A DNA stretch of 52,251 nt from Candidatus Delongbacteria bacterium. Its GTDB lineage: Bacteria > UBA4055. The stretch's first letter is position 1; each line of letters starts with the position of its first letter. The stretch covers positions 1-52,251 of the forward strand of contig JAFGVM010000008.1 of the NCBI GenBank assembly GCA_016937995.1, written 5' to 3'. This document shows, one piece after another, positions 2,421 through 34,491 of this stretch. The notes beneath the pieces are model-generated. The model worked only from the letters and a program-made list of their open reading frames with translations. It did no database searches and was not told the DNA's origin. The position numbers and the translations under genes were made by a program.

Positions 2421-5204
2421 ATGAAAACATCAGAACACGCAGACAGGACCGAGAAGCTGGTCGGTATCAGAGCTGAGGATATCCACAAATGGATAGACGG
2501 GTTCTTTGATTTTGACGGATTTGAAGATTTCCTTCGTTCAGAGAAACTTACCGGTTATGATCCATATGACCATAGAAAATTCAGGCATTGTATTGAAGCT
2601 TTGGATGAAGCATACCAAACTTTTGCGGATAAATACACCAAAGAGCAGATAAAAGCTGTCTTTGAATCACATATCAAGGATGATTACAACGGATATATTC
2701 CCCACAGAGAAGATTTTGAGAACGGTACTTTCACTGAGCATTACCATGAAAATGATGGCAGGGAAGAAAGTGAATCGATCCTGAGTGAAACTGAACTTTC
2801 GGATTATTTCAAAGGTAAATTCTATACTCAGAGTAAGAAAAAGAATAAAAAAATTACTACCGGTTTTCAGTTAAGGATCGTTCTACCGACAATTCTGGCT
2901 ATAATTTTATTCGTATCGTCAGTTTTTACAGTGATACTACCGGTTTTCAGAAGCAATATGCTCGAAAGAAAGAAAGAAATGATCAAAGAACTTACTGCAG
3001 CCGCTATAAGTGTCATTGAATTTAACATCGACTTGGAAAAGAAAGGAACTCTTACGAGAGAGGAAGCTCAGAATAAATCGATCATTGAAATAGAAGCCAT
3101 GAGATATGGTGATGAGAACAAAGATTATTTCTGGATCACTGATATGTACCCGAGAATGGTAATGCATCCCTATAGAACTGATTTGAAGGGACAGGATCTT
3201 TCAGATTTTAAAGATGTCATGAACAAGAGTGGAAAATATCTCTTTGTTGAGTTCGTAAAGATCGTAAAAGCTCAAAAAGAGGGATATGTAGAATATCTCT
3301 GGCAGTGGAAAGATGATGAGAGCAGGGTCGTTCCAAAGCTTTCTTTCGTTAAAGGTATTCCTGAATGGGAATGGATCATCGGTACAGGTGTATATATTAA
3401 TGATGTAGAAGATGAGATAGCACTTCTTTCAAAAAATATAACGATAATATTTTCATTCATTGCCGGACTTTTAATACTGATATTGACCTATGTGATCTTC
3501 CAGAGCAGGAGAATAAACAACGATCTTCTAAAAGCTGATGCGGGTCTTATTGAAGCTAAAGACAGGTATAAAGCATTAGTAGAAGCATCAAATGAAGGTC
3601 ATATACTTGAAGTCGAAGGTGAAAATGTCTATTCAAATTTCACTTTGCAGAAAATGCTCGGATACAGCGGAAAAGAGATATCCTCTATGAAAACAGTGGA
3701 TCTTTTAGTCCCGGATTCCAAAGTAAATGAAGAAGGTCTGAATCATCTGAAGAAACTTTCTTCAGGGAAAACTATGTCAGGTGAATTTGAAGCTCAGGTA
3801 TTAACAAAGACCGGAGAGATCCTGGATGTAGTCATCACAACTGCAAGGATATTCTTTCTGAAAAAGAAAGGTCATGTGATCTCAGTCAGAAAAATATTGA
3901 GAAAGAAATCCAATGATATGATGATCTCCTACAGTGGAAACCAATATAATCCCGGAAGTATTTTTGCAACAAAGAAGGTCAAAGATATCTGTAGAAAAAC
4001 CACCGAAGAAGACAAGTCTGACACAGAGAAGATTTCATCAGAAACACCGGTATTTGAAGCTCTCGAAGTAATGAAGAATTCTGAAAGAGACAATCTAAAT
4101 GTTATTGATGAAAACGGAAAGATCATCGGAATTGTAGGCTATTATGACATCGCAATGATGTACTCTGGATTGCCTACAGGAATGCTTTTTGAAATTGAGA
4201 ACAGTGAAAATGTAGGTCATGTTATAAGAACTCTCAATAGATTACCGGACCTTATCAAGGAAATGACAGCACAGGGGATAAGATCTGACACTCTCCGGGA
4301 AACTATAAGTAAGATGTATACTGCTGCAATTAAGTTATTTATAAAAATATCTTTAGAAGAATCAGGAGAACCTCCAGTTAAATTTGCATTTCTTTCTCTC
4401 GGAAGTACAGCAAGACAGGAAATGACAATGTTCTCCGATCAGGATAATGCACTGATATTTGAAGATACACAGGATATAGATAAAGCTAAAAAATATTTCA
4501 TCAGGTTTGCCGATAAAGTATGTACAAAGCTGAATAAAGCAGGTTACCCGTTCTGTCCGGGTGGAATTATGGCAGTAAACCCAAAATGGTGCCTGTCATT
4601 GACAGAATGGAAAGATAATTTCACCGAATGGATCGAAAATGCAACACCGGAATCGATCTTAGAGATCAATGTCTTCTTTGATATTCGTTGTGACTACGGA
4701 GAAGAAAAATTAGTTACGGATCTTCAGGATCATATCAAAGAAAAAACAGAGCAGAACCCGGCATTTTTCATAAATTTTGCCCAGAATTGTCTAAGATACA
4801 GAGAACCTTTGAATCTTCTCGGAAGGATCAAAGCCGAAAGCAAAGATGGAGCTAAAACTTTCAATATTAAGGATAATTTGATCCCGATAGTAAATTTTGG
4901 CAGATTATATGCGCTGAAGAACCATGTAACCGAACCGAGTACGGTCAAAAGATTACATGCTCTTTATGAAAAAGATATTCTAAAGGATAAGGAATATCAT
5001 GAAATAGTGTATGTATTCAATCATTTATGGCATTTAAGATTTTATAATCAGATAATATCTCATTCAGAGTTGAAAAAAGCAGATAACGAGCTTGATCTTG
5101 AGCAGTTAACAGATATTGAGAGATTGAATTTAAGGAATGTGCTGGCGGAGATATCGAATTTCCAGGCAAGGATCAGTAGCGATTTTCTGGATGGAACAAT
5201 GTAG
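2421..5204 (+). CDS. Membrane signal-transduction protein: N-terminal His-rich domain, TM, Cache sensor, TM, PAS, CBS, DUF294 nucleotidyltransferase and substrate-binding domain
   Basis: Cache: YFWITDMYPRMVMHP...GYVEYLWQW...PKLSFVK..PEWEWIIGTGVY. Two TM helices flank it. PAS: RYKALVEASNEG...N..LQKMLGYS. CBS: ETPVFEALEVM...VIDENGKIIGIV. NTase motif LGSTARQEMTMFSDQDNALI and GYPFCPGGIMAVNPKW. Confidence 0.85.
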   Translation: MKTSEHADRTEKLVGIRAEDIHKWIDGFFDFDGFEDFLRSEKLTGYDPYDHRKFRHCIEALDEAYQTFADKYTKEQIKAVFESHIKDDYNGYIPHREDFENGTFTEHYHENDGREESESILSETELSDYFKGKFYTQSKKKNKKITTGFQLRIVLPTILAIILFVSSVFTVILPVFRSNMLERKKEMIKELTAAAISVIEFNIDLEKKGTLTREEAQNKSIIEIEAMRYGDENKDYFWITDMYPRMVMHPYRTDLKGQDLSDFKDVMNKSGKYLFVEFVKIVKAQKEGYVEYLWQWKDDESRVVPKLSFVKGIPEWEWIIGTGVYINDVEDEIALLSKNITIIFSFIAGLLILILTYVIFQSRRINNDLLKADAGLIEAKDRYKALVEASNEGHILEVEGENVYSNFTLQKMLGYSGKEISSMKTVDLLVPDSKVNEEGLNHLKKLSSGKTMSGEFEAQVLTKTGEILDVVITTARIFFLKKKGHVISVRKILRKKSNDMMISYSGNQYNPGSIFATKKVKDICRKTTEEDKSDTEKISSETPVFEALEVMKNSERDNLNVIDENGKIIGIVGYYDIAMMYSGLPTGMLFEIENSENVGHVIRTLNRLPDLIKEMTAQGIRSDTLRETISKMYTAAIKLFIKISLEESGEPPVKFAFLSLGSTARQEMTMFSDQDNALIFEDTQDIDKAKKYFIRFADKVCTKLNKAGYPFCPGGIMAVNPKWCLSLTEWKDNFTEWIENATPESILEINVFFDIRCDYGEEKLVTDLQDHIKEKTEQNPAFFINFAQNCLRYREPLNLLGRIKAESKDGAKTFNIKDNLIPIVNFGRLYALKNHVTEPSTVKRLHALYEKDILKDKEYHEIVYVFNHLWHLRFYNQIISHSELKKADNELDLEQLTDIERLNLRNVLAEISNFQARISSDFLDGTM

Positions 5205-5410
5205 CGGCGTAATTTATTACGCCTGGAACATCCAACATACAACATCCCGATAAATCGGGACAGGCAGGAATGTTCAATTTACAAGGATTCAGTACAGACG
5301 CGATTTATCACGTCTAACCACACACACGAAAAATTTTTTTTACAGGAAGATGGGAAGATAAGGAAGAATGTAGGGGTTTAAAATATGTAACACGACACCA
5401 TTTCCCCTAC
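5201..5410 (+). repeat. Cluster of REP-like palindromes
   Basis: GTAGC-GGCGTAAT-TT-ATTACGCC (5201-5223), TCCCGAT-AA-ATCGGGA (5245-5260), GTAC-AGACGCGAT-TT-ATCACGTCT (5292-5315) and GTAGGGG...CCCCTAC (5370-5410). Related copies occur at 12075 and 34405. Confidence 0.7.
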
Positions 5411-5551
5411 CTATTTTATTTGTTAAAATCGTATTTTTATATTATATTATAATCCCTAAGCATATTTAAATTGGTCAATCAAAAAAAATAAATTGAACGA
5501 AAACAGCAAAATTTTCGTTTACACTGAAATAAAAGAATACTTGGAGATAGT

Positions 5552-5794
5552 ATGGACAGAGATAAATTATCAGTACTAGCTATAAGTGACAGCGGATTCA
5601 TTTTTGATCCGGTGACAGGTCATTCATATACTGCAAATGCAACAGGATTAAGAATTTTTGAATTACTTAAAGAAGATAAGTCAGAAGATGAGATAAAAAG
5701 TATTCTGATGGAAGAATTTGAAACAACAGAAGATGAAGTCAGTGTAGATGTGGATGATTTTATTGAGAATTTGAAAAAATATTTTCTCGTGTAA
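5552..5794 (+). CDS. Stand-alone PqqD-family / RiPP recognition element (RRE) protein
   Basis: 80 aa with three short strands then three helices: GFIFDPVTGHSYTANATGLRIFELL...EDEIKSILMEEFET..DEVSVDVDDFIENLKKYFLV, the PqqD pattern. RBS GGAG. Confidence 0.85.
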   Translation: MDRDKLSVLAISDSGFIFDPVTGHSYTANATGLRIFELLKEDKSEDEIKSILMEEFETTEDEVSVDVDDFIENLKKYFLV

Positions 5795-5805
5795 GAAAAT
5801 ATTTT

Positions 5806-5964
5806 TAGTGGTAAGTGATAAGTGGCAAGTGGTCAGTTCGTATGGGCACAATATATTGTGCCCATACGAACCACAACAAACATGAATGTAGGGAACGCCT
5901 AACAGCCGTTCCCATAAATGCAAAAAAAGATTGCCACGGATTGTTCACCAATCCTCGCAATGAC
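5806..5964 (+). repeat. Intergenic repeat cassette: heptamer tandem, 36-bp perfect palindrome, GTAG-REP, GATTGC...GCAATGAC element
   Basis: TAGTGGT/AAGTGAT/AAGTGGC/AAGTGGT (from 5806); GTTCGTATGGGCACAATA|TATTGTGCCCATACGAAC (5836-5871); GTAGGGAACG...CGTTCCC (5888-5913); GATTGCCACGGATT..AATCCTCGCAATGAC (5929-5964). Confidence 0.85.
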
Positions 5965-5976
5965 ATAGGAAAAAGT

Positions 5977-7014
5977 ATGAAAATAGTCGTAGCAGTCAGC
6001 GGTATTAACGCAGTGGACAACCCGGGTCCGGGAACAGGGATCTGCAAAGCATTGAAAGAAAGTGATCTTGATATAAGAACTATCGGATTGGCTTATGATG
6101 CTATGGAACCCGGCGTTTACATGGACAACATTATTGATAAAAGTTATATCATGCCATATCCATCCGGCAGTAGAGAAGCTTTTATCGAAAGGATCAAGCA
6201 TATACATTCAGTAGAAAAAATAGATGTTATAATATCAGCTTTAGACGCAGAATTACCAATCTATATGGATATAGAACCGGTCCTTCAGGAACTTGGAATA
6301 AAGATGCTGATCCCTACAAAGGAAATGTTCAAAACAAGGGATAAGCTGAGGCTGAAAGAATTGGCGGAAACGATCGGTGTAAAAGCTCCCGAATACAGAA
6401 GCTGTACTTCTATCAGAGATCTTCATGATTCAACAGAGAATGTCGGATTTCCATGCATGGTAAAAGGTCCGTTCTACGAAGCTTTCAAAGCAAATAATAT
6501 CTCTGAAGCGGAAGGTTACTTCCATAAGATAGCAATGGCATGGGGCTATCCGATCATCGTACAAAAATTCATTACAGGTGATGAGTATGATGTCATCGGT
6601 TGCGGAGACGGGAAAGGGAACGATATAGGTGTTTTTGCGATCAGGAAAATGACGATCACAAAACTCGGAAAGGTCTGGAATGCGGTTAGCATAAAGAATG
6701 AAAAGCTCATCGAAGCAACAAGGAAGGTAGTTAAAGGTCTTTCCTGGAGAGGTGGATTTGAGTTTGAAGTTCTGGTCGAAAGTTCATCGCAGGATATTTA
6801 TGTACTTGAGATTAATCCAAGATTTCCCGCATGGGTTTATTTTGCAGCGGGATGCGGTATAAATCTTCCAGAGAGAATGGTGAAACTTCTGCTGAATAAG
6901 GAGTATGAAACAAATTCAAATTACGACAGTGGAAAATTAATGATAAGATTCACAAATGAAATGATCAAAGATATAAAGGATTTTGAACAAATATCGACAA
7001 CAGGGGAAACATAA
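5977..7014 (+). CDS. ATP-grasp ligase (carbamoyl-phosphate-synthase-like); true start at 5977, not 5815
   Basis: Start MKIVVAVSGINAVDNPGPG preceded by AGGA. ATP-grasp motifs RDKL, GFPCMVKG, IIVQKFITGDEY, FEFE and VLEINPRFP. The upstream 54 in-frame codons consist of repeat DNA. Confidence 0.88.
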   Translation: MKIVVAVSGINAVDNPGPGTGICKALKESDLDIRTIGLAYDAMEPGVYMDNIIDKSYIMPYPSGSREAFIERIKHIHSVEKIDVIISALDAELPIYMDIEPVLQELGIKMLIPTKEMFKTRDKLRLKELAETIGVKAPEYRSCTSIRDLHDSTENVGFPCMVKGPFYEAFKANNISEAEGYFHKIAMAWGYPIIVQKFITGDEYDVIGCGDGKGNDIGVFAIRKMTITKLGKVWNAVSIKNEKLIEATRKVVKGLSWRGGFEFEVLVESSSQDIYVLEINPRFPAWVYFAAGCGINLPERMVKLLLNKEYETNSNYDSGKLMIRFTNEMIKDIKDFEQISTTGET

Positions 7015-7017
7015 AGA

Positions 7018-7172
7018 TAGGGGTTAGGGATTAGGGGTTAGGGGTTCGTAGAGACGTTGCCCTGCAACGTCTCACAACACACCACGACCAATAATCCCGT
7101 AGGGGCATTATTTATAACGCCCGAAAAACGAAAAAAAAGATTGCCACGGATTTTAAAAATCCTCGCAATGAC
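7018..7172 (+). repeat. Intergenic repeat cassette: (TAGGGGT)4 heptamers, two GTAG-REPs, GATTGC...GCAATGAC element
   Basis: TAGGGGT-TAGGGAT-TAGGGGT-TAGGGGT (7018-7045); GTAGAGACGTTGC..GCAACGTCTC (7048-7073); GTAGGGGCATTAT..ATAACGCCC (7099-7122); GATTGCCACGGATTTTAAAAATCCTCGCAATGAC (7139-7172). Confidence 0.85.
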
Positions 7173-7195
7173 AAACATAAAACACAGGTGACATT

Positions 7196-8548
7196 ATGAA
7201 AAAAGAATATATTAAACCGTACATTAAGAAACAAACAGCCGGAATTATGAATAAATTCGGTGTTTCTTACAATAAAGGTCACAGAGAAGATATTTTAGGT
7301 ATTCCTATCGGGAATTTCACCGATAAATTCGGATCCCCCGTCTTCGTTCTCAGTGAAAAGCTGATCAGAGAAAGATATAGAAAAATATATTCGCACTTTT
7401 CAAGTAAATATCCCAAAGCAAAAATGTCATGGTCGTATAAGACCAATTATCTCGATGCCGTTTGTTCAATAATGCATCAGGAAGGGGAAACTGCAGAAGT
7501 AGTTTCAGACTTTGAATATCAGAAAGCGAGAAGACTGGGAGTTCCAGGGAATAAGATAATTTATAACGGTCCATATAAACCGATAGAATCTTTGAAAGTT
7601 GCTTTCCAAGAAGGAGCAATGGTCAACCTTGATAATTTTGATGAACTTATAAAAGCAGAAGATGCCGCAAAGAGTATTAATAAAAAAGTTCCCGTCGGTA
7701 TCAGAGTGAATATGGACACCGGAGTATATCCTCAGTGGTCAAGATTCGGATTCAATATAGAAAATAACAGTGCATTCAATGCCGTAAAAAGGATCCAGCA
7801 CAGTGAAAATCTTTACTTAGAAGGAATTCATTGTCATATCGGAACTTTCATGCTTGATCCGAATGCGTACAGGGAAGCTGTGAAAAAAGTCGTTGCTCTG
7901 ATGAGAAAGATCGAAATTATGTTCAAAATAAATATCAAATATCTTGATTTCGGTGGAGGTTTTCCTTCAATGAATAAACTGAAAGGAACATATTTACCTC
8001 CTGAAGTTTCAGTTCCACCTGTTGAAGAATTCATTGATGCAGTGGCAGATACCTTATTAGAGGAACTTAAACCGGATGAATATCCTGATGTTTATTTAGA
8101 AACCGGTAGATCTATCATTGATGAAGCAGGCTGGTTGATAACTTCAGTTGATGCAGTGAAAAGGCTTCCCGACGGAACAAAAAGTTATATAATTGATGCA
8201 GGTGTAAATTTATTATATACTTCGACCTGGTACAATTATAAGGTCGAAATTGACAGAGAGCTTCACGGAGCTTATGAAAATTCAGTGATCTACGGACCTC
8301 TCTGCATGAACATTGATGTCGTTGTTGAAAGTGCATTTTTACCACCTTTACCAATAGGTACAAGGCTGATTTTATCTCCAATGGGAGCTTACAATGTTAC
8401 TCAGTGGATGCAATTTATAAGATACAGACCTGCTGTTGCAATGATAATGGAGGATGGTTCACTTGAGGAAATCAGAAGACCTGAAACTCTTGATGATGTG
8501 GTCGGACCTGAAAGAATACCAGAAAAATTAAAGAAGTTTGAGCTATAG
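7196..8548 (+). CDS. Fold-type III PLP-dependent decarboxylase-like enzyme (LysA/BtrK-like), substrate unknown
   Basis: PLP lysine in WSYKTNY; SRFG; HCHIGT; DFGGGF; ETGRS; GPLCMNID; MGAY. Lacks the Cys-Glu/Asp pair of true LysA/ODC, so no gene symbol is assigned. Confidence 0.85.
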   Translation: MKKEYIKPYIKKQTAGIMNKFGVSYNKGHREDILGIPIGNFTDKFGSPVFVLSEKLIRERYRKIYSHFSSKYPKAKMSWSYKTNYLDAVCSIMHQEGETAEVVSDFEYQKARRLGVPGNKIIYNGPYKPIESLKVAFQEGAMVNLDNFDELIKAEDAAKSINKKVPVGIRVNMDTGVYPQWSRFGFNIENNSAFNAVKRIQHSENLYLEGIHCHIGTFMLDPNAYREAVKKVVALMRKIEIMFKINIKYLDFGGGFPSMNKLKGTYLPPEVSVPPVEEFIDAVADTLLEELKPDEYPDVYLETGRSIIDEAGWLITSVDAVKRLPDGTKSYIIDAGVNLLYTSTWYNYKVEIDRELHGAYENSVIYGPLCMNIDVVVESAFLPPLPIGTRLILSPMGAYNVTQWMQFIRYRPAVAMIMEDGSLEEIRRPETLDDVVGPERIPEKLKKFEL

Positions 8549-10624
8549 ATGCGAGAAAAAAATAAAATCATCGTACTATTTGAAGACCTTACGGGGTCAT
8601 TTTCGAATTTGATCTTCATCAAAAGTAAAATTGTCGGACTTTTGCTTTTTGTCTGTACACTTTTCAATCTGAATATTGCATCTCAGGGAATTATCTCTCT
8701 AGTTGTGGCTGTCCTGTTTGCAAGGTTCATCGGCATAAAAAAGGATGACCCGATAAATAAATTATACAGTTATAATGCTCTACTGACCGGTTTCGCAATA
8801 GGATTCTTATTTAAAGTGACTTATCTGTCTATTATTATGACAGTTGGAATGAGCATAATGACAGTTCTTCTAACCTACACATTGAGCTCGGTACTGTATA
8901 ATTTATTCAAGCTGCCGGTACTGAATATCCCATTCACGATCTCAGCAACAATAATTTATTTATCTTCAAGTAAGTACAGTAATTTGATCGTAGATTCGTT
9001 CTACAGGCAGGATCATTTTAATTTAGATTTTATTCCCGGATACATTCAGGGATTGCTCAGAGCAGCAGGAATACTGGTATTCATGCCTTACGATATTATC
9101 GGGATAGTCGTACTTCTGGCAATATTGTTCTATTCCCAGATAACTTTTTTTGTCACGATATTTTCATATTATACAGGGATATTATTTCTGGCATTATTGA
9201 AAGGGAGTCTTCCTTTAGCTTTTGCAGAGATATCTTCATTTAACTTTATACTGGTCGGTATTGCTCTCGGTGGAATGTTCCTTATTCCATCTAAAAGGAC
9301 CTATCTGCTTACTTTCACTGCAGTATTAGCTTCAGTGTTTATCATAGACGCAACTTCAGTATTCTGGGTATCTTTCGGAATACCAGTATTTACACTTCCG
9401 TTCAACCTTACGGTTCTGTTATACATCTATGTCCTGGGCAGTGTGAAATATCCAATGATGAACTATACTTCTCTGGATCAACCTGAAAGATCACTGGTAA
9501 ATTTCCTGAACTACAAAAACCGTTTCGACTGGATCACTCCGTCAATAAATCTTCCATTTATGGGTAGATGGACAGTATATCAAGGATTCAACGGGGAGTG
9601 GACACATAAAGGTGTGTGGAAATATGCCTATGATTTTGTCATTGAGGATGATGAAGGTAAAACTTACAAAGGTAACGGATCAGAAAAAGAGGATTTCTAC
9701 TGTTTCGGTAAACCGGTAATCTCTCCAATTGACGGAACTATTGTTGAGACATATGATGACCTGGAAGATAACGAACCAGAGCAGGTCGATAAGGACAACA
9801 ACTGGGGGAATTATGTAATGATCCATTCCCCGCTGGGATATTACATTGAAATATCTCACCTGAAAAAAGATTCGGTCAAGGTAAAAATAGGAGATTATGT
9901 CACAAAAGGAACACCATTAGCAGAATGTGGTAATTCCGGGTACTCACCTCAACCCCATTTGCATATTCAGCTGCAATATTCTCCATATATAGGTTATGCA
10001 GGATTTGAGTTTAAATTCAACAGTCTAAAGTTAGCTGACAGTGGTACAATAGATCCTGATTTATTAGTCAAGGGCAACAAGGTAATTCCGCTTACATCAT
10101 CCAAAACGATCAGCAGGAAATTTCAGTTCATTCTTGATGAGGAATTCAATTATGATATTTATGAAAATGATGTAAAAGCAGCTGAACTCAGTTTAGCAGT
10201 TAAAATGGAATCTGATGGAACTTATTATTTCTCTGATACTGATGGCAATAGACTTTATTTCGGCAAAGACAAAGACAGATTCGTATTCTTTAAATATTCA
10301 GGTGACAAAAGAACTTATCTCAGATATTTTATGATCGCGATGCCTTCTCTGTCACTAACAGATGAAAATAATTTCACATGGTCCGAATATTTATCTGATG
10401 ATCTTTTGTACTCGAAATTTCCTAAAATACTGAAATCATTCTATCATTCTTCTGATACGACCACTGGCAGGTATACAAAAGTTAAGGAAAATATTATTGA
10501 AGGTAAGATCATTAAGAATAAAACAGGTCTTTTTGATACTGAGATCACACTTTGCGACTTCAAAGGGTTTAAGGATATCATTATAAATGAGAGTGAAAAG
10601 AAGATCTGGATGACAAAAGTATGA
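8549..10624 (+). CDS. Urea-transporter-family membrane domain fused to an M23 metallopeptidase domain plus an uncharacterised C-terminal region
   Basis: About 10 hydrophobic helices with duplicated UT-type motifs (LYSYNALL...LPVLNIPF; SFNFILVG...IPVFTLPF). Then M23 features THKGVWKYAYDF, PVISPIDGTIV, WGNYVMI, SHLK..SVKVKIGDYV and CGNSGYSPQPHLHIQ. Confidence 0.82.
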   Translation: MREKNKIIVLFEDLTGSFSNLIFIKSKIVGLLLFVCTLFNLNIASQGIISLVVAVLFARFIGIKKDDPINKLYSYNALLTGFAIGFLFKVTYLSIIMTVGMSIMTVLLTYTLSSVLYNLFKLPVLNIPFTISATIIYLSSSKYSNLIVDSFYRQDHFNLDFIPGYIQGLLRAAGILVFMPYDIIGIVVLLAILFYSQITFFVTIFSYYTGILFLALLKGSLPLAFAEISSFNFILVGIALGGMFLIPSKRTYLLTFTAVLASVFIIDATSVFWVSFGIPVFTLPFNLTVLLYIYVLGSVKYPMMNYTSLDQPERSLVNFLNYKNRFDWITPSINLPFMGRWTVYQGFNGEWTHKGVWKYAYDFVIEDDEGKTYKGNGSEKEDFYCFGKPVISPIDGTIVETYDDLEDNEPEQVDKDNNWGNYVMIHSPLGYYIEISHLKKDSVKVKIGDYVTKGTPLAECGNSGYSPQPHLHIQLQYSPYIGYAGFEFKFNSLKLADSGTIDPDLLVKGNKVIPLTSSKTISRKFQFILDEEFNYDIYENDVKAAELSLAVKMESDGTYYFSDTDGNRLYFGKDKDRFVFFKYSGDKRTYLRYFMIAMPSLSLTDENNFTWSEYLSDDLLYSKFPKILKSFYHSSDTTTGRYTKVKENIIEGKIIKNKTGLFDTEITLCDFKGFKDIIINESEKKIWMTKV

Positions 10625-12045
10625 TACCAAGGTTAGTTTATTTATTTTTTGTTCTGATATTAAACAGTGTATTGCTTTCTTCTCAGATAGATGAGTTGAT
10701 AAATAGAGGCAACGAATTATACTTTAACGGTGATATTGAAAAAGCTCTGTATAAATTTTACGAAGCGGAAAAATTAAATCCTTTTGACCTAAGACCCAAG
10801 GAGGGTATTTACAACTCCTGTATCTATTTGGGTAAGTACAAAACTGCGAACAAATACGCAAAGAAGCTATTTTCTCAGTCAGCTTCAGATATAAATACCG
10901 ATCGTGTGATATATACTGATGCTTTACTGGGTAAAACAAATGAAGCTGATAAATTACTGGATTCAGATCAAAGTTATGAAAGAAAAAAATATCTATTGTC
11001 TTTGACGGGTTGGGGACTATACAACAGCGGACATTACATAGAAGCGTTAAAATGGTTTGAAAAAGTTAGGAACCATGGTTTTAGGAGTTCCGATTTTTCT
11101 GATGGTTATTCTTTATCCAGAGATAAACTGCGGTCAGAAAGGAAAGTTGCCGACATTTCAATTTCACCATTTATTTTTAACGGAAGTCAGAATTTTGATG
11201 GTGGATTAAACTTAAATTATAATTTCAATTACGGAAAGTATGACAAAAGGTATGACCTCGACCTGGTAATGCAGTACACAGTAATGGACCCCTCGAGAGT
11301 ATCGGAAAACCCCAATTTTTACGGAGATATAGGTCAGTACGAAATATTCTGGAGTTATGAGCGCTTAAATTCTTCCACAAATTCATTTTATAATGCAGGG
11401 AAATTGAGTTTTATAACAAATGACTATGTGAAATTTTCTCTTACGGGTCTAAGTGGTCTGAAATATAGAGTGAACGATCAATGGTTATTCGACTCTTACC
11501 TTTCAGGTTCGATAATAGGTTATGCATACTATGATATTTTAGATGTAAGTATTTTCACTGGAAAGCAACCACCTCCACCAAGAGCTAATTTCAATGAATA
11601 TTACAATACTTTGTTTTCAATGCAGTCAACCACAAATGCAACTTATTACACAGATTATTTTTATATCAATGGAGAAATATCTTTGATAAAATTATTGAAC
11701 TCATCTTATTTTTCTGATATGAGAATTTATGATGACAGAGATGATCTGCCTGATGAAGTGGTCGATTCAGATATAATTGAATATTTCTATACCGTAAGGG
11801 CGGGTATAACGACAAGAAATCTCGATATTTTCGGAAGTTTTTCAGAGGGGAATAATTTTTTATTGAACTCAGATGGCGGTAGGTTTTTGAATACAACAGA
11901 ATTCGGTTATGAAAATGGTTTTAGCGGCGGAATAACTTTTAATAAACTATTTCATAAATGGGTTGTATCATATATATTTTCACAGAGTAATTATGAGGAT
12001 TATAATATAATAACTAACACATTGGTCGCGAGTTACAGCTGGTAA
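10621..12045 (+). CDS. Secreted protein with N-terminal TPR repeats and a probable C-terminal outer-membrane beta-barrel
   Basis: Signal peptide; TPR-like helices (GNELYFNGDIEKALYKFYEAEKLNP; GWGLYNSGHYIEALKWFEKV). The rest is Tyr/Gly-rich alternating strands ending LVASYSW (terminal aromatic, BAM-type). ATGA overlap with the upstream gene. Confidence 0.6.
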   Translation: MIPRLVYLFFVLILNSVLLSSQIDELINRGNELYFNGDIEKALYKFYEAEKLNPFDLRPKEGIYNSCIYLGKYKTANKYAKKLFSQSASDINTDRVIYTDALLGKTNEADKLLDSDQSYERKKYLLSLTGWGLYNSGHYIEALKWFEKVRNHGFRSSDFSDGYSLSRDKLRSERKVADISISPFIFNGSQNFDGGLNLNYNFNYGKYDKRYDLDLVMQYTVMDPSRVSENPNFYGDIGQYEIFWSYERLNSSTNSFYNAGKLSFITNDYVKFSLTGLSGLKYRVNDQWLFDSYLSGSIIGYAYYDILDVSIFTGKQPPPPRANFNEYYNTLFSMQSTTNATYYTDYFYINGEISLIKLLNSSYFSDMRIYDDRDDLPDEVVDSDIIEYFYTVRAGITTRNLDIFGSFSEGNNFLLNSDGGRFLNTTEFGYENGFSGGITFNKLFHKWVVSYIFSQSNYEDYNIITNTLVASYSW

Positions 12046-12074
12046 ATAAAGAATGAATATTCAATATCGAACAC

Positions 12075-12230
12075 GTCCCGATTGATCGGGACAATGTCCA
12101 AATAAAACCGTAGGGAACTGTTTCAAACTGTTCCCGAATGTACACAGGGACGAACCCATGTGTTCGTTTGGAAGGGTTGCCGTTAATGCATAAATAGATT
12201 GCACGGATTTCATAAAATCCTCGCAATGAC
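12075..12230 (+). repeat. Intergenic repeat cassette of REP-like palindromes plus GATTGC...GCAATGAC element
   Basis: GTCCCGAT-TG-ATCGGGAC (12075-12092); GTAGGGAACTGTTT-C-AAACTGTTCCC (12110-12135); GGGACGAACCCATGTGTTCG (about 12147-12166, matching 35537); GATTGCACGGATTT..AAATCCTCGCAATGAC (12197-12230). Confidence 0.8.
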
Positions 12231-12255
12231 AAATAAAAAAATAGGAGAAAAATAG

Positions 12256-12864
12256 ATGAAGTACAAATTAATAACATTATTGATAATATCTGTAAGTTTA
12301 TTTGCTGAGTTAAGTTTCAAGGATATTCAAAATGCATACACGAGTTCATATTCTTACGAAACTGCCCAAAAGTACGATAAGGCCATTTCAAGCTTGAACA
12401 AGGTCATAACTGCTTATCCAAACGGATATACAGTTAATTATAGGCTAGGTTGGTTATATTATCTTGCAGGAAATTATGCTAATTCGGTTAAGCATTTGAA
12501 TGCTGCATTATTGATCTATCCATATTCTGTAGAAGCTTTGAATACTGTAAATTTAGTCAATGTTGCAAAATTGGACTGGGATAAAGTTGAAGCTCAATCA
12601 ATTAACATTTTCAAGATAGATTATTACAATTATTATGCAAATTACTGGTATTCTGTTGCTCTAATGAGGCAGAAAAAATACGATCAGTCCATAAAGATCG
12701 CAAATAAAATGCTTGGTGTTTTTCCTACTAATGTCACTTTTTTAAATATTTTAGCTGAAAGCACATATCTTTTGGGAAGTACTGAAGATGGATTGAAGAT
12801 ATTTGAGTCTGTGGTTATTCTGGATAAGGATAATGAGACAGCGAAATATTATCTGAATAAGTGA
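12256..12864 (+). CDS. Secreted TPR-repeat protein
   Basis: RBS AGGAG; signal peptide ending SLFA; TPRs such as YRLGWLYYLAGNYANSVKHLNAALLIYP and LAESTYLLGSTEDGLKIFESVVILDKDN. Confidence 0.8.
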   Translation: MKYKLITLLIISVSLFAELSFKDIQNAYTSSYSYETAQKYDKAISSLNKVITAYPNGYTVNYRLGWLYYLAGNYANSVKHLNAALLIYPYSVEALNTVNLVNVAKLDWDKVEAQSINIFKIDYYNYYANYWYSVALMRQKKYDQSIKIANKMLGVFPTNVTFLNILAESTYLLGSTEDGLKIFESVVILDKDNETAKYYLNK

Positions 12865-12869
12865 TGAAA

Positions 12870-13343
12870 TCATTCTTCAGTTTTATCTATTGAATGATCA
12901 GAAGCTTCATCTAACGGCTCGATCTTACTTTTTAGAAAGTTATATACTTCATTTCTTTTATCGGAGGGGATCCTGAGCAAAATTCCTCTGAACGACTCCA
13001 TACGTGTGGAAATTCTGTAAGGAGATAAAAATACACCGTTCTTATCAAGGGAAACCTTCTTATAATAGTCATAGTCATGCCTGATCTTATAAAAAAATCT
13101 GTCGACGACCAGTCTATCATCATACAATATATATCTAAAAGAGAAAAATATCTCTGTAAGTGATAAAATCGTAAGGACCAGGGCAATAACTGCATAAGTT
13201 GGATTGAACATATAGTAGATCATGATATTGACGATGAATACAGCTAAAACACCTTTGAAAAAAGTCTTAGGATCGTCCTTCAAAGTATTTTGTACAAAAT
13301 GGTATACTGGTTCTTTTTTATCGGTCATTTCGTTTATCTCCAA
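12870..13343 (-). CDS. Hypothetical membrane protein (2 TM + small soluble domain)
   Basis: 157 aa directly downstream of dut, with RBS GGAG and two hydrophobic segments. Confidence 0.7.
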   Translation of the reverse strand: MEINEMTDKKEPVYHFVQNTLKDDPKTFFKGVLAVFIVNIMIYYMFNPTYAVIALVLTILSLTEIFFSFRYILYDDRLVVDRFFYKIRHDYDYYKKVSLDKNGVFLSPYRISTRMESFRGILLRIPSDKRNEVYNFLKSKIEPLDEASDHSIDKTEE

Positions 13344-13345
13344 GT

Positions 13346-13777
13346 CTATATTCCAGTTGAACCAAAACCGCCTTCACCACGGCTTGTATCGCTCAGGTCC
13401 TGAACTTCACTAATATTAACACTGTAAGTTGGTTTAATGACCATCTGGGCAATTTTCATACCTTCAGTGACAGTAAAATTTTCCTTACCATGATTTATCA
13501 TAATAACTCCGATCTCACCTCTGTATCCTTCATCAATTGTTCCGGGAGTATTTGTTAATGAAATTGTGTGTTTAAGAGCTAATCCGCTGCGGGGTCTTAT
13601 CTGTGCTTCTGTATTTTTTGGAAGCTGTATGCTGATACCGGTCTTAACAAGAAATGACTTTCCCGGTTTAAGAACTTTATTTTCGATAGAAAAAAGATCA
13701 AGACCTGCATCTCCGGAGTGTGCAAAAGAAGGTAATATTGCTTTATCAGATAATTTTTTTACTTTAACTTCAAACAT
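13346..13777 (-). CDS. dut: dUTP diphosphatase
   Basis: [25 protein letters not shown] and [10 protein letters not shown] motifs. Confidence 0.97.
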
Positions 13778-34328: not shown

Positions 34329-34478
34329 GGAACTGTTCCCTACAAAATGTCCAATATCCAAGGGAAACTGTAGGGGACGATTTCTTTTCGTCCCCAAACA
34401 TCCCGTAAAGACGTGATTTATCACGTCTCGTATAAAATAAATAGATTGTCACGGATTTGTATAAATCCTCGCAATGAC
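34325..34478 (+). repeat. Intergenic repeat cassette between mnmG and rsmG
   Basis: GTAGGGAAC-T-GTTCCCTAC (34325-34343); GTAGGGGACGA..TCGTCCCC (34370-34395); GTAAAGACGTGAT-TT-ATCACGTCT (34405-34428); GATTGTCACGGATTT..AAATCCTCGCAATGAC (34444-34478). Confidence 0.85.
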
Positions 34479-34491
34479 ACAGGAAAAATAT

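Follow-up and report, generated by a model that had tools for sequence, protein, structure and literature searches.

A conserved six-gene operon in Candidatus Delongbacteria and its possible role in the biosynthesis and export of a small amide

Closest described systems and layout of the locus

Iterative chemistry by an ATP-grasp ligase and a decarboxylase of the Orn/DAP/Arg family has been established for closthioamide (PMC7183216, the part available). BtrI/BtrJ/BtrK, responsible for the butirosin side chain, and CtaE/CtaD/CtaF, responsible for the closthioamide backbone, represent non-canonical thiotemplated assembly. Their decarboxylases act on tethered or conjugated rather than free amino acids, and repeated rounds of ligation and decarboxylation lead to GABA or beta-alanine amides (available parts of PMC7183216 and PMC7857480). 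A ligate-then-decarboxylate logic also underlies rhizoferrin synthesis by FigA/FigC (FslA/FslC). The lasso-peptide B1/B2/C/D machinery brings together a separate RRE of the PqqD type, an enzyme that forms amides at the expense of ATP, a peptidase and an exporter in the membrane.

The locus described here occupies positions 5552..12864 of the window, the whole 52,251-nt stretch of DNA that was analysed, on contig JAFGVM010000008.1 of Candidatus Delongbacteria (GCA_016937995.1). As in the Btr and Cta systems, an ATP-grasp protein (likened to theirs by description) is paired with a PLP decarboxylase of the Orn/DAP/Arg family, and a small protein of the ~80–90 aa class is encoded beside the pair. 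Unlike those systems, the cluster has neither a phosphopantetheine carrier nor a transacylase, its small protein is of the PqqD family and lacks the carrier-type Ser motif, and an envelope module absent from the Btr/Cta pathways is coupled to it. It differs from FigA/FigC in having no NIS synthetase, and from the lasso-peptide machinery in having no precursor gene, a ligase that is ATP-grasp and not asparagine-synthetase-like, a peptidase that is M23 and not transglutaminase-like, and an exporter other than an ABC transporter.

The six ORFs are where the original prediction put them, all in + orientation, and both proposed instances of translational coupling were confirmed: genes abut at 8548/8549, and an ATGA overlap is present at 10621-10624. 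Three terminator-like sites were located in 5000–13500, where shuffled sequences lead one to expect 4.3 ± 1.7; all are on the - strand and hence none on the + strand, in keeping with the claim that no U-tailed terminator separates the genes. In this genus only, the operon is split by three spacers (~180–210 nt) bearing a genome-wide, imperfect hairpin repeat, GATTGCCACGGATT-N-AATCCTCGCAATGACA; outside this genus the cluster genes abut. The first copy (5929..5965, + strand) lies in the intergenic spacer 5795–5976, 12 nt 5' of the ATP-grasp start, the second (7139..7173, +) 5' of the decarboxylase start, and the third (12196..12231, +), with a 5' arm one base shorter, 5' of the start of gene 6. 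The genome holds 30 copies at <=2 mismatches, nearly all of them 8–25 nt 5' of an RBS and ATG and in the same orientation.

The cytoplasmic proteins

Gene 1 (5552–5794, +) codes for an 80 amino acid RRE-type protein which matches PqqD (PF05402; 47.9 bits, cut-off 23.4, E 1.7e-12). It reaches the cut-off of none of the NCBIfam PqqD models, the best match being the lasso-peptide PqqD chaperone (34.7, cut-off 70), and its C-terminus is neither conserved nor acidic. A profile of the subfamily recovered 607 representatives with E<=1e-10, and almost every one is a stand-alone protein of 78–100 aa. Modelling of the RRE with the ATP-grasp enzyme, as the original prediction had suggested, gave a complex score of 0.32 against 0.00 for the best of three controls, with runs sharing at least 95% of contacts and a partner pLDDT of at least 82; the mark for this test is reached by 58/80 solved complexes and 2/110 mismatched pairs, and at scores <=0.60 by only 7/80 solved complexes together with both passing mismatches. 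The model thus lends weak support to a pairing of the PqqD protein with the ligase.

Gene 2 (5977–7014, +) specifies the 345 amino acid ATP-grasp ligase. Its ORF is open from GTG 5815, and this codon was rejected as the start since 51/51 aligned homologues begin at a Met equivalent to ATG 5977, the most likely initiation codon on this alignment. The protein matches ATP-grasp_3 (33.8, cut-off 23.2), ATPgrasp_Ter and CPSase_L_D2. Among solved structures 2PN1 is the closest to it (E 8.5e-9), ahead of the ATP-grasp domains of carbamoyl-phosphate synthetase. The family is highly conserved, with a mean column identity of 61% over 52 sequences.

Gene 3 (7196–8548, +) encodes a 450 amino acid PLP decarboxylase of the alanine-racemase fold (fold III) with Orn_Arg_deC_N (E 4.9e-34) and Orn_DAP_Arg_deC matches. 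The best solved relative is the N-citrylornithine decarboxylase FigC (7KH2, E 3.6e-57), compared with E 1.3e-43 for DAP decarboxylases and 5e-24 for BtrK, and the protein scores below the cut-offs of both the lysA (198.3 bits, cut-off 297.9) and the NCBIfam FslC (212.5, cut-off 500) models. K82, the GGG loop, T342, W345, C370-M371-N372-I373-D374, Q403 and Q406 are invariant in 62/62 sequences. With residue roles taken from the available part of PMC7857480, Thr342 replaces the Arg that binds the distal carboxylate in DAP decarboxylases, and Met371 the acidic residue beside the catalytic Cys, each in 62/62. FigC has the same Thr on its specificity helix and the same Met beside the Cys, whereas its proposed citrate-contacting residues H357, R387 and N389 correspond to Ile373, Gln403 and Met405. 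The same source groups FigC with SbnH, AcsE, MccE and BtrK, all of which act on conjugated amino acids.

Judged by these scores and residues, the enzyme is not LysA, the ordinary DAP decarboxylase, an identity that had been named among the outcomes refuting the idea. The Thr342/Met371 pattern fits a side-chain-conjugated amino acid as substrate, and so suggests that ligation comes before decarboxylation, in the manner of BtrJ/BtrK and CtaD/CtaF. The analogy with BtrJ/BtrK drawn at the outset gains strength from these FigC-like residues and from the CtaD/CtaF example.

The channel-peptidase fusion and the outer envelope proteins

Gene 4 (8549–10624, +) encodes a 691 amino acid fusion of a UT-fold channel (residues ~1–325), an M23 zinc peptidase (~330–505) and a beta-rich C-terminal domain (~520–691). 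The UT match covers residues 17–295 (E 4.8e-50) and that to Peptidase_M23 residues 387–476 (E 1.4e-12). In the AF2 model (pLDDT 90.3, pTM 0.81) the UT domain aligns with UT-A3, UT-B and dvUT (Z 34, rmsd 2.8–2.9 over 308–311 residues) and the M23 domain with LytM/M23 domains (Z 12–14); the best relatives of the C-terminal domain reach Z ~9 and none is clear. With the urea transporters dvUT, UT-A and UT-B the protein shares the whole-domain fold and the paired YNxxL-type and LPxxxxPF-type signatures. It differs from them in being fused to a 360-aa tail of M23 plus beta-domain, in its score on the urea_trans_yut model (89.1, cut-off 274.6) and in lacking a urease context. The first signature motif has Asn or Ser in place of the Thr of canonical UTs, so that the properties of the pore may differ.

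Across 47 sequences the zinc-site residues H353, D362, H437, H470 and H472 never vary. M23 domains are normally extracytoplasmic, and we know of no characterised precedent for a cytoplasmic one. Homology to UT topology and charge bias agree in predicting a cytoplasmic location for the M23 and C-terminal domains of gene 4, and this prediction speaks against a role for M23 in cutting murein.

Gene 5 (10621–12045, +) specifies an exported protein of 474 amino acids in which a TPR domain (~22–170) precedes a 14-stranded outer-membrane beta-barrel (173–473). The AF2 model is confident (pLDDT 90.8, pTM 0.81) and bears out the TPR-plus-barrel architecture that had been thought probable. Its top Foldseek match is BcsC (2.2e-11), after which come the 14-strand barrels OmpG (TMt 0.61–0.70), FadL and TodX. 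In most phyla the homologues are barrels only (median length 305 aa); 50/53 have an aromatic residue among the last four positions, and 47/53 a hydrophobic N-terminal segment. Gene 6 (12256–12864, +) encodes an exported TPR protein of 202 amino acids, 50/53 homologues of which begin with such a segment; the repeats of both proteins were recognised by family match, gene 6 matching multiple TPR families. The assignments to cytoplasm, inner membrane, periplasm and outer membrane hold. A periplasmic TPR domain joined to, or adjoining, an outer-membrane barrel also characterises the exopolymer exporters BcsC, PgaA and AlgK/AlgE. Exporter barrels of that type have 16 to 18 strands, unlike the 14 modelled in gene 5, and the cluster has no glycosyltransferase synthase.

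Conservation, alternative readings and a possible pathway

A collection of 185,579 species-representative genomes contains 304 UT-M23 relatives. The original prediction had staked itself on co-occurrence in other genomes, and the homologues do travel together in the best 80 of these 304 loci, which span >15 phyla. Within this set tblastn places the PqqD gene at the head of the enzyme trio in 59/80 and finds gene 6 in 67/80, and clustering of ORFs gives five families in 80, 72, 66, 63 and 41 loci, the next occurring in only 10. Among 39 species-level loci with >=4.5 kb upstream and >=6.5 kb downstream, PqqD-like, ATP-grasp and decarboxylase genes all lie beside UT-M23 in 35, the latter two enzymes in 36 and a TPR gene in 36. 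A second sample of metagenome loci, seeded from a distant PqqD (n=24 with >=5.5 kb downstream), has ATP-grasp and decarboxylase in 24/24 each and UT-M23 in 23/24. The six-gene arrangement is conserved far beyond chance. Our literature search found no paper assigning the cluster, in agreement with the claim that it matches no characterised pathway; only the UT-M23 architecture is in print, listed in PMC12998343, the available part of which proposes no function for it.

We tentatively propose, at somewhat short of an even chance, that the six genes form one conserved operon for a biosynthesis-and-export line running from the cytoplasm to the outer membrane. Two Shewanella loci count in its favour as an analogous replacement: they keep the UT-M23, barrel-like and TPR genes (the TPR protein having a weak PgaA model match), and the enzymes are replaced by an unrelated decarboxylase of the fold-I Orn/Lys/Arg type, another kind of ATP-grasp and a C45 hydrolase, with no PqqD gene.

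An unlikely alternative is that a precursor of peptidoglycan, or one linked to lipid, is modified by the cytoplasmic enzymes on the inner side of the membrane, for instance through attachment of an amino acid to the stem peptide followed by decarboxylation. M23 would then bind the stem peptide, and the modified wall would be recognised or held in place by the TPR and barrel proteins. Every solved M23 relative listed is a peptidoglycan-peptide binder or cutter, and the ligase has a weak Ddl-type match in both the model and solved-relative searches, Ddl being among the ATP-grasp enzymes that act on wall precursors. The attachment porin OmpM1 is among the fold matches of the gene 5 barrel, and a 28%-identical UT-M23 homologue in genome G031 stands without enzymes beside LPS-core genes, its neighbours including WaaA, a GT9 heptosyltransferase and two ABC ATPases. 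The rarity of the cluster would, however, be odd for a core envelope trait, and close relatives of the M23 subfamily occur on plasmids of haloarchaea, which have no murein. In addition, conservation of the UT signature residues would fit a pore in use, and none of the cluster proteins resembles Mur, Fem or a flippase.

The usual ligands of PqqD-family proteins are ribosomal leader peptides, and the family assignment of gene 1, with its lasso-type best match, could point to a RiPP-type pathway with the precursor encoded elsewhere. The leader would be bound by the PqqD protein and later removed by M23, and the core would be modified by the ATP-grasp and decarboxylase, resembling lasso-peptide B1/B2/C logic or the MccE step of microcin C; the weak PqqD-ligase signal agrees with this, and MccE, from the same clade of decarboxylases, has a peptide conjugate as its substrate (PMC7857480, the part available). 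We consider this doubtful. Up to 3 kb on either side of the core genes, the only small ORF (12–90 aa) common to phyla is the PqqD gene itself (16 loci), and no conserved ORF of 4–16 aa was found in the 260 nt 5' of that gene in 55 loci, as expected from the earlier statement that no precursor is visible. The RiPP lead taken from the RRE is weakened accordingly. The Shewanella variant dispenses with PqqD altogether, and a folded peptide would probably be too wide for the UT pore.

It is improbable that the locus serves uptake, with a small amide, urea-like or short linear peptide-like nutrient entering via the barrel and UT pore to be cleaved by cytoplasmic M23 before reaching the ligase and decarboxylase. 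UT proteins are bidirectional channels that serve uptake in bacteria, OmpG and FadL/TodX, to which the barrel is similar, are substrate channels, and the peptidase is on the predicted cytoplasmic side. Against this, an ATP-consuming ligase with a FigC/BtrK-clade decarboxylase is biosynthetic in every characterised case in the source material cited, urease, amidase and catabolic genes are not conserved by ORF clustering in the best 80 of 304 loci, and TPR-plus-barrel proteins are typical of export systems such as BcsC.

Hardly any credence can be given to the view that gene 3 is simply the organism's LysA among unrelated housekeeping genes placed together by chance: no match in G000 or in three related genomes passes the curated cut-off for lysA, G000 and two of the three have DapF (not found in G006, ~91% complete) and the relatives' third lysA-like gene, missing from G000, is of the ornithine-decarboxylase type, but the Thr and Met substitutions each occur in 62/62 sequences, the six genes co-travel across phyla and a complete distant genome holds a true lysA (518.3 bits) beside the cluster copy (221.6 bits).

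Returning to biosynthesis and export, several points count against it: the Asn/Ser UT motif, UT-M23 genes that stand without enzymes (as at locus L038), the predicted cytoplasmic placing of M23, a PqqD protein with no leader peptide found nearby, the weak complex result and the narrowness of UT pores, through which presumably only a thin molecule could pass. The cluster also has no carrier protein; 95% of the loci of CtaD homologues have one (PMC7183216, the part available). The dedicated pathway first envisaged gains from the conservation, the non-LysA enzyme, the compartments and the BtrJ/BtrK logic; its RiPP lead, and a murein-cutting role for M23, fare worse.

In the proposed line, the ATP-grasp enzyme would couple an amino acid in the cytoplasm, by way of its side chain, with the carboxylate or amine of a partner, with the PqqD-type protein perhaps acting as a ligase accessory that holds a peptide-like acceptor. 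The FigC/BtrK-type decarboxylase would then strip the free alpha-carboxylate of the conjugate to leave an amine-ended amide, and further rounds may lengthen it, as with BtrJ/BtrK and CtaD/CtaF. At the cytoplasmic tail of the UT channel, the M23 zinc hydrolase and beta-rich domain may trim, release or gate the product, which would cross the inner membrane via the narrow, amide-selective pore and leave through the dedicated 14-strand barrel, with the periplasmic TPR domains as scaffold. These bacteria appear to make a small nitrogen-containing compound, best read as an amine-ended amide, and to pass it out via a urea-channel-like pore and an outer-membrane barrel of its own.

Gene content and conservation of the cluster

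The original prediction placed a six-gene system on the plus strand between nucleotides 5552 and 12864, encoding a PqqD-type protein, an ATP-grasp ligase, a PLP-dependent decarboxylase, a fusion of a urea transporter (UT) fold with an M23 peptidase, a TPR protein with a beta-barrel, and a further TPR protein (genes 1 to 6, respectively). All six open reading frames are present there, and Pfam upheld the domain assignments, with gene 3 as a two-domain decarboxylase of the Orn/DAP/Arg type and genes 5 and 6 as TPR proteins. No model reached its curated NCBIfam cut-off for any of the six proteins, and PADLOC returned no defence-system match for them. Stop and start codons do abut at 8548/8549 and overlap as ATGA at 10621–10624, the features described as translational coupling, and a scan of nucleotides 5000–13500 gave three terminator sites, every one on the minus strand, in agreement with the claim that none separates the genes. 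The ATP-grasp gene most probably begins at the ATG at 5977, a correction to the start shared by all aligned homologues.

A scan of one genome per species yielded 304 relatives of the UT-M23 protein, the best 80 of which were taken as loci. Most relatives of the family have a full-length homologue, and three other genera show synteny of all six genes. In a distant, complete 1.54-Mb genome the UT-M23 protein is 40% identical, and tblastn matched five of the six genes, with room for a divergent gene 5. The best 80 loci belong to Delongbacteria, Cloacimonadota, Desulfobacterota, Thermodesulfobacteriota, Aquificota, Calditrichota, Ignavibacteria/Melioribacter, Fibrobacterota, Verrucomicrobiota, Gemmatimonadota, Planctomycetota, Campylobacterales, Leptospirales, Armatimonadota, WOR-3, Firestonebacteria and others. 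By tblastn of these best 80 of 304, UT-M23 was present in all 80, the decarboxylase in 68, the TPR gene in 67, the ATP-grasp gene in 64 and the PqqD gene in 59, many of the misses being contig ends. Among the 39 well-flanked loci (4.5 kb or more upstream, 6.5 kb or more downstream), 35 carry all three enzymes, 36 the ligase and decarboxylase, and 36 the TPR gene; the exceptions are L038 from a Persephonella MAG, two Shewanella loci, and L051, in which the PqqD ORF was overlooked by tblastn. When ORFs of at least 60 aa from the best 80 loci were clustered, five families were recovered, in 80, 72, 66, 63 and 41 loci, and no further conserved family was found, the next commonest occurring in just 10. 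A metagenome sample seeded from a distant PqqD-subfamily member comprised 24 loci with at least 5.5 kb downstream; the ligase and decarboxylase were present in all 24 and UT-M23 in 23, at 25–33% identity to the UT-M23 protein of the window. Both sets of counts bear out the co-occurrence of the genes across phyla.

The usual order is PqqD (78 residues), ligase (345), decarboxylase (450), UT-M23 (~695), gene 5 (median 305) and TPR (median 208). In some loci of the Fibrobacterota type, the enzyme trio (genes 1–3) comes after the envelope trio (genes 4–6). This is the arrangement in the lineages of L030, L060, L076 and L089 (Fibrobacterota/Chitinispirillia type), where a 265–280-aa MerR-family regulator lies directly upstream of UT-M23.

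Two Shewanella loci (L080, 9983–19703, and L090) keep UT-M23, two TPR proteins and a 296-aa barrel-like protein that begins with a signal peptide and ends in Trp. The PqqD gene is absent, a C45 acyltransferase/hydrolase is present, and the enzymes are a 912-aa fold-I Orn/Lys/Arg decarboxylase (LdcC-like, E 9.1e-65, under its cut-off) and a 510-aa ATP-grasp protein of the PRK06524 type (528 bits, under its cut-off of 684). Since an unrelated decarboxylase and a different ligase occupy this place, we argue that the functional unit is a decarboxylase and an ATP-dependent ligase feeding UT-M23, barrel and TPR proteins; these loci likewise argue that some versions of the system can do without the PqqD protein. 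Other UT-M23 copies have different surroundings. A 728-aa homologue with 28% identity (L016, 7847–13758, genome G031) is accompanied by two ABC ATPases, a WaaA-like Kdo transferase, a GT9 heptosyltransferase and a YHS-domain protein, and no PqqD, ligase or decarboxylase gene was found near it. In L038 (9992–14172) and in L037 from an Aquificales MAG, UT-M23 occurs without the enzymes and is convergent with a 695-aa protein having weak M12/reprolysin-like metallopeptidase matches; the Persephonella loci L049 and L056 contain the complete cluster.

The spacers at 5795–5976, 7015–7195 and 12046–12255 are filled with hairpins, and each closes with a copy of GATTGCCACGGATT-N-AATCCTCGCAATGACA. This element, an imperfect, oriented hairpin (genome-wide form AGATTGCCACGGATT-N3-8-AATCCTCGCAATGACA), has 30 copies with at most two mismatches in the 2.75-Mb genome (G000), nearly all of them 8–25 nt upstream of a ribosome-binding site and start codon in the same orientation. 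Copies in the window lie at 5929–5965, 7139–7173, 12196–12231 and 34464–34479, so that three of the genome's 30 are inside the operon. Elsewhere in the family, other genera have the six genes abutting, with neither the spacers nor the element in the operon. The element could act as a stem-loop in the 5'-UTR, as a processing site or as an operator. Several further GC-rich hairpins occur in the three spacers and at 5243–5262, together with a TTAGGG-like G-rich run at ~7017–7046; three other hairpin types have just 4–10 copies each across G000. In nucleotides 5000–13000 the sole Rfam matches were two to snoRNAs at chance level (E 0.34 and 0.66), and in six other loci nothing reached the gathering score; these searches gave no hint of a riboswitch.

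Encoded 350 nt upstream of the cluster (2421–5204, plus strand) is a 927-aa signalling protein with Cache, PAS, CBS and DUF294 nucleotidyltransferase domains, which is kept with it in none of the best 80 of 304 loci. The neighbouring Fur gene was rejected as a hint of a siderophore role, Fur-like matches being near the cluster in only three of 80 loci.

The ligase, the PqqD-type protein and the decarboxylase

The ATP-grasp ligase is strongly conserved (mean column identity 61%) and generic by sequence. Its best solved matches are 2PN1, a structural-genomics entry labelled 'carbamoylphosphate synthase large subunit', and carbamoyl-phosphate synthetase domains; ESM Atlas gave unnamed ATP-grasp clusters only, and the two matches to longer ATP-grasp forms provided no informative fusion. 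The product of gene 1 scores 47.9 bits with the PqqD model PF05402 (cut-off 23.4), and has the usual pattern of three strands and three helices, with a highly conserved N-terminal strand region. Comparison of homologues revealed no carrier-type serine, and a LysW-like carrier role was rejected for want of a conserved acidic C-terminus. Complex prediction for the ligase and the PqqD protein gave a weak signal (score 0.32; best of three controls 0.00), with at least 95% of contacts agreeing between runs and a partner pLDDT of at least 82. Of 80 solved complexes, 58 passed the mark of this test, as did 2 of 110 mismatched pairs; only seven of the 80, plus both passing mismatched pairs, did so with scores of 0.60 or below.

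A profile of the PqqD subfamily found 607 representatives at E≤1e-10. Among the best 150 of these matches are four proteins of 262–273 aa with a C-terminal PqqD domain (P0269, P0289, P0315 and P0330). The clear TetR N-terminal domain of P0289 (E 5.5e-9) suggests a regulator-PqqD fusion and, since at least one such protein has this domain, PqqD domains may also be used in regulation.

The nearest solved relative of the decarboxylase is FigC/FslC, the N-citrylornithine decarboxylase of rhizoferrin biosynthesis (7KH2, E 3.6e-57), followed by DAP decarboxylases (1.3e-43) and BtrK (5e-24). It scores 198.3 bits with the lysA model TIGR01048 (cut-off 297.9) and 212.5 with the FslC model NF041039 (cut-off 500), under the cut-off in both cases. 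Specificity positions were read from HMMER alignments to 7KH2, 2P3E and 1TWI, using the residue roles that section 8 of PMC7857480 assigns to the DAP decarboxylase and FigC pockets. The specificity-helix position for binding of the distal carboxylate is Arg in DAP decarboxylase, Thr in FigC and Thr342 in the cluster family; that beside the catalytic Cys, which binds the distal amine, is acidic, Met and Met371, respectively. The proposed citrate contacts of FigC, H357, R387 and N389, are replaced in the cluster family by Ile373, Gln403 and Met405. All 62 decarboxylase sequences, from many phyla, share Thr342, Met371, Ile373 and Gln403, along with the PLP lysine, glycine loop, Trp345 and Gln406; position 405 is Met in 58 and Leu in four. 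Because the specificity and PLP-site residues are invariant, the enzyme looks active and, judged from these positions, is no decarboxylase of DAP, ornithine or lysine. It would appear to have a single conserved substrate, with a distal group other than a free amine, a free carboxylate or citrate. In PMC7857480, the FigC clade, including SbnH, AcsE, MccE and BtrK, is described as comprising decarboxylases of conjugated amino acids.

No lysA match over the curated cut-off was found in four Delongbacteria genomes (G000, G005, G006 and G012). DapF was found in G000 and two of its three relatives, and not in G006 (~91% complete); the extra lysA-like gene of the relatives is of the ornithine-decarboxylase type and has no counterpart among the G000 matches. 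This group may have an unusual lysine biosynthesis, or none. We do not count the sub-cut-off lysA result in the four genomes as evidence that the cluster gene is lysA.

The UT-M23 fusion and the outer components

Pfam places the UT domain of gene 4 at residues 17–295 (PF03253, 170.8 bits, cut-off 25) and the M23 peptidase at 387–476 (48.1 bits, cut-off 28.7). In the AF2 model (pLDDT 90.3, pTM 0.81), residues 1–325 superimpose on UT-A3, UT-B and dvUT with Z 34 and an rmsd of 2.8–2.9 over 308–311 residues, and residues ~330–505 match LytM/M23 domains (Z 12–14). Residues 522–691 form a beta-rich domain with middling matches (Z ~9) in a whole-model search that barely probes it; the best ESM Atlas score for this C-terminal domain, 0.76, was too low for use. 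The paired UT signatures are retained, the first LPxxTxPF motif reading LPVLN/SIPF; in each of the 12 sequences of one alignment (A1) its Thr is replaced by Asn or Ser. All 47 sequences compared retain the M23 residues H353, D362, H437, H470 and H472, the first M23 motif having the spacing H-x8-D in place of the canonical HxxxD.

The M23 domain and C-terminal tail are predicted to be cytoplasmic because of where the UT alignment ends, the charge bias of the loops and the existence of stand-alone homologues without signals. UT proteins have both termini in the cytoplasm and a glycosylated loop outside, which aligns with residues ~141–163 of gene 4. Alignment to human UT-A/UT-B extends to residue 322–326, and no further membrane helix precedes the M23 domain. 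Over 47 sequences, the loops canonically inside have 4.57 K+R in 23 residues and those canonically outside 2.40 in 46, with 2.9 in the N-tail. The close homologues P0123, P0126 and P0128 (the last from a Lebetimonas genome), some of which may be fragments, consist of M23 and the C-terminal domain and begin at the M23 domain without a signal peptide. The UT-M23 architecture is named, as an architecture only, in a passage of PMC12998343.

None of 49 records in the plasmid collection spans 80% of the fusion. Haloarchaeal megaplasmids (H6–H10) and a Thermus thermophilus plasmid (H2) encode stand-alone M23 proteins with 34–43% identity to the M23 domain of gene 4. On a Haladaptatus plasmid the M23 gene lies ~1 kb upstream of a nitrile hydratase operon; the gene contexts on the Haladaptatus and Thermus plasmids were uninformative.

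In the gene 5 model (pLDDT 90.8), TPR helices extend to residue ~170 and 14 beta-strands come after them. BcsC was the top Foldseek match (2.2e-11), followed by the 14-strand barrels OmpG (TMt 0.61–0.70), FadL, TodX and CymD. In most phyla gene 5 is a barrel without the TPR domain. Across 53 loci, a hydrophobic N-terminal segment is found in 47 gene 5 products and an aromatic residue among the final four in 50; gene 6 encodes an exported TPR protein, with a hydrophobic N-terminal segment in 50 of the 53.

Relation to known systems and proposed function

The cluster falls outside every family that we considered. By analogy, it works most like the BtrJ/BtrK (butirosin) and CtaD/CtaF (closthioamide) pairs, joined to an export route without a characterised counterpart. 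In those systems an ATP-grasp enzyme and an Orn/DAP/Arg-family decarboxylase are encoded together, as they are adjacent here in the window and in 36 of the 39 well-flanked loci. Passages of PMC7183216 describe the formation of gamma-Glu-GABA by BtrJ/BtrK and of tri-beta-alanine by repeated CtaD/CtaF rounds. Both pairs use a PCP/ACP carrier, whereas the six proteins have no carrier-domain match and there is none among the conserved families; the cluster is therefore not a thiotemplated pathway of either type. The FigC pathway is excluded because neither a NIS synthetase (among the conserved families) nor the citrate-binding residues are present. The BcsC, PgaA and AlgKE exporters combine periplasmic TPRs with an outer-membrane barrel, as does the gene 5 model, but depend on an inner-membrane glycosyltransferase synthase; as there is no glycosyltransferase among the six proteins or the conserved neighbour families, this is not a synthase-dependent exopolymer system. 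Gene 4 shares its fold with urea transporters, yet lacks the first pore Thr and scores 89.1 with the bacterial equivalog model urea_trans_yut (TIGR03441), under the cut-off of 274.6. Full-text literature searches of main texts found no published account of the cluster, and portions of PMC8939145 and PMC12710340 held nothing resembling it. We rate the ligate-then-decarboxylate biosynthetic operon as a known kind and the envelope module as unprecedented.

The best-supported reading, to which we would give slightly less than an even chance, is a biosynthesis-and-export line for an amine-ended amide. The ATP-grasp enzyme would ligate an amino acid through its side chain, and the conjugate would be decarboxylated to an amine-ended amide, possibly in repeated rounds. 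The cytoplasmic M23 and beta domains would then handle the product, which would pass through the UT pore and exit via the TPR-scaffolded barrel. What the analysis shows is the conservation, the folds, the conserved residues and a predicted topology; this chemistry, the direction of transport and the roles of the PqqD protein and the M23 domain we infer.

The enzymes might instead modify a precursor of the cell envelope, as the M23 domain could suggest; we regard this as unlikely. The PqqD/RRE fold in gene 1, on which a RiPP lead had been based, stands (PF05402 over cut-off), while the precursor gene that an RRE-dependent RiPP is expected to have was not found within 3 kb on either side. There, ORFs of 12–90 aa formed no cross-phylum cluster other than the PqqD gene itself, and in 55 loci the 260 nt preceding that gene held no shared ORF of 4–16 aa. 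Having no precursor gene nearby, this is not a standard RiPP cluster, though such a gene could lie elsewhere in the genome, and we consider a RiPP with such a remote precursor rather doubtful. Partner-dependent graspetides (PMC13097080) were rejected as a match since, unlike the cluster, they have precursors. Uptake of a compound through the barrel and UT-fold pore, with assimilation by the enzymes, would suit a channel fold; with the enzymes paired as in known biosynthetic operons, it seems improbable. That gene 3 is an ordinary lysA with chance neighbours, for all its likeness to DAP decarboxylases, is scarcely credible given its sub-cut-off score, Thr342 and Met371, and the true lysA (518.3 bits) that stands alongside the cluster copy (221.6 bits) in the distant complete genome. 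The remaining probability we leave to explanations that we have not thought of.

We also allow a slim chance that the product is a secreted, side-chain-free oligo- or polyamide of the nylon-3 or nylon-4 type, threaded through the UT-fold pore. The ATP-grasp enzyme and decarboxylase would iterate, as CtaD/CtaF do for tri-beta-alanine, with the PqqD protein holding the growing end. The M23 domain, of a peptidase family that includes lysostaphin, a cutter of pentaglycine, would guide or cut the chain. The chain would thread the urea-channel-fold pore, a slot suited to amide groups, and be secreted via the TPR-scaffolded barrel in the manner of synthase-dependent exopolymers. If this reading holds, the chain would represent a new class of secreted biopolymer, and serving as a polymer conduit would be a new use of the UT fold.

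Because the decarboxylase pocket is invariant across phyla, one defined metabolite is probably made by all carriers, which would make the system directly testable by heterologous expression. The labels 'urea transporter', 'peptidoglycan DD-metalloendopeptidase' and 'diaminopimelate decarboxylase' on the cluster genes are probably misleading. The carriers span at least fifteen phyla, mostly uncultured or extremophile. If the proposed biosynthesis-and-export line is correct, the ligate-then-decarboxylate amide assembly of butirosin and closthioamide would extend to a carrier-protein-free, PqqD-assisted form, and the urea-transporter fold would have a role outside urea transport, its pore being joined to an M23 hydrolase in the cytoplasm and linked with an outer-membrane barrel of its own.
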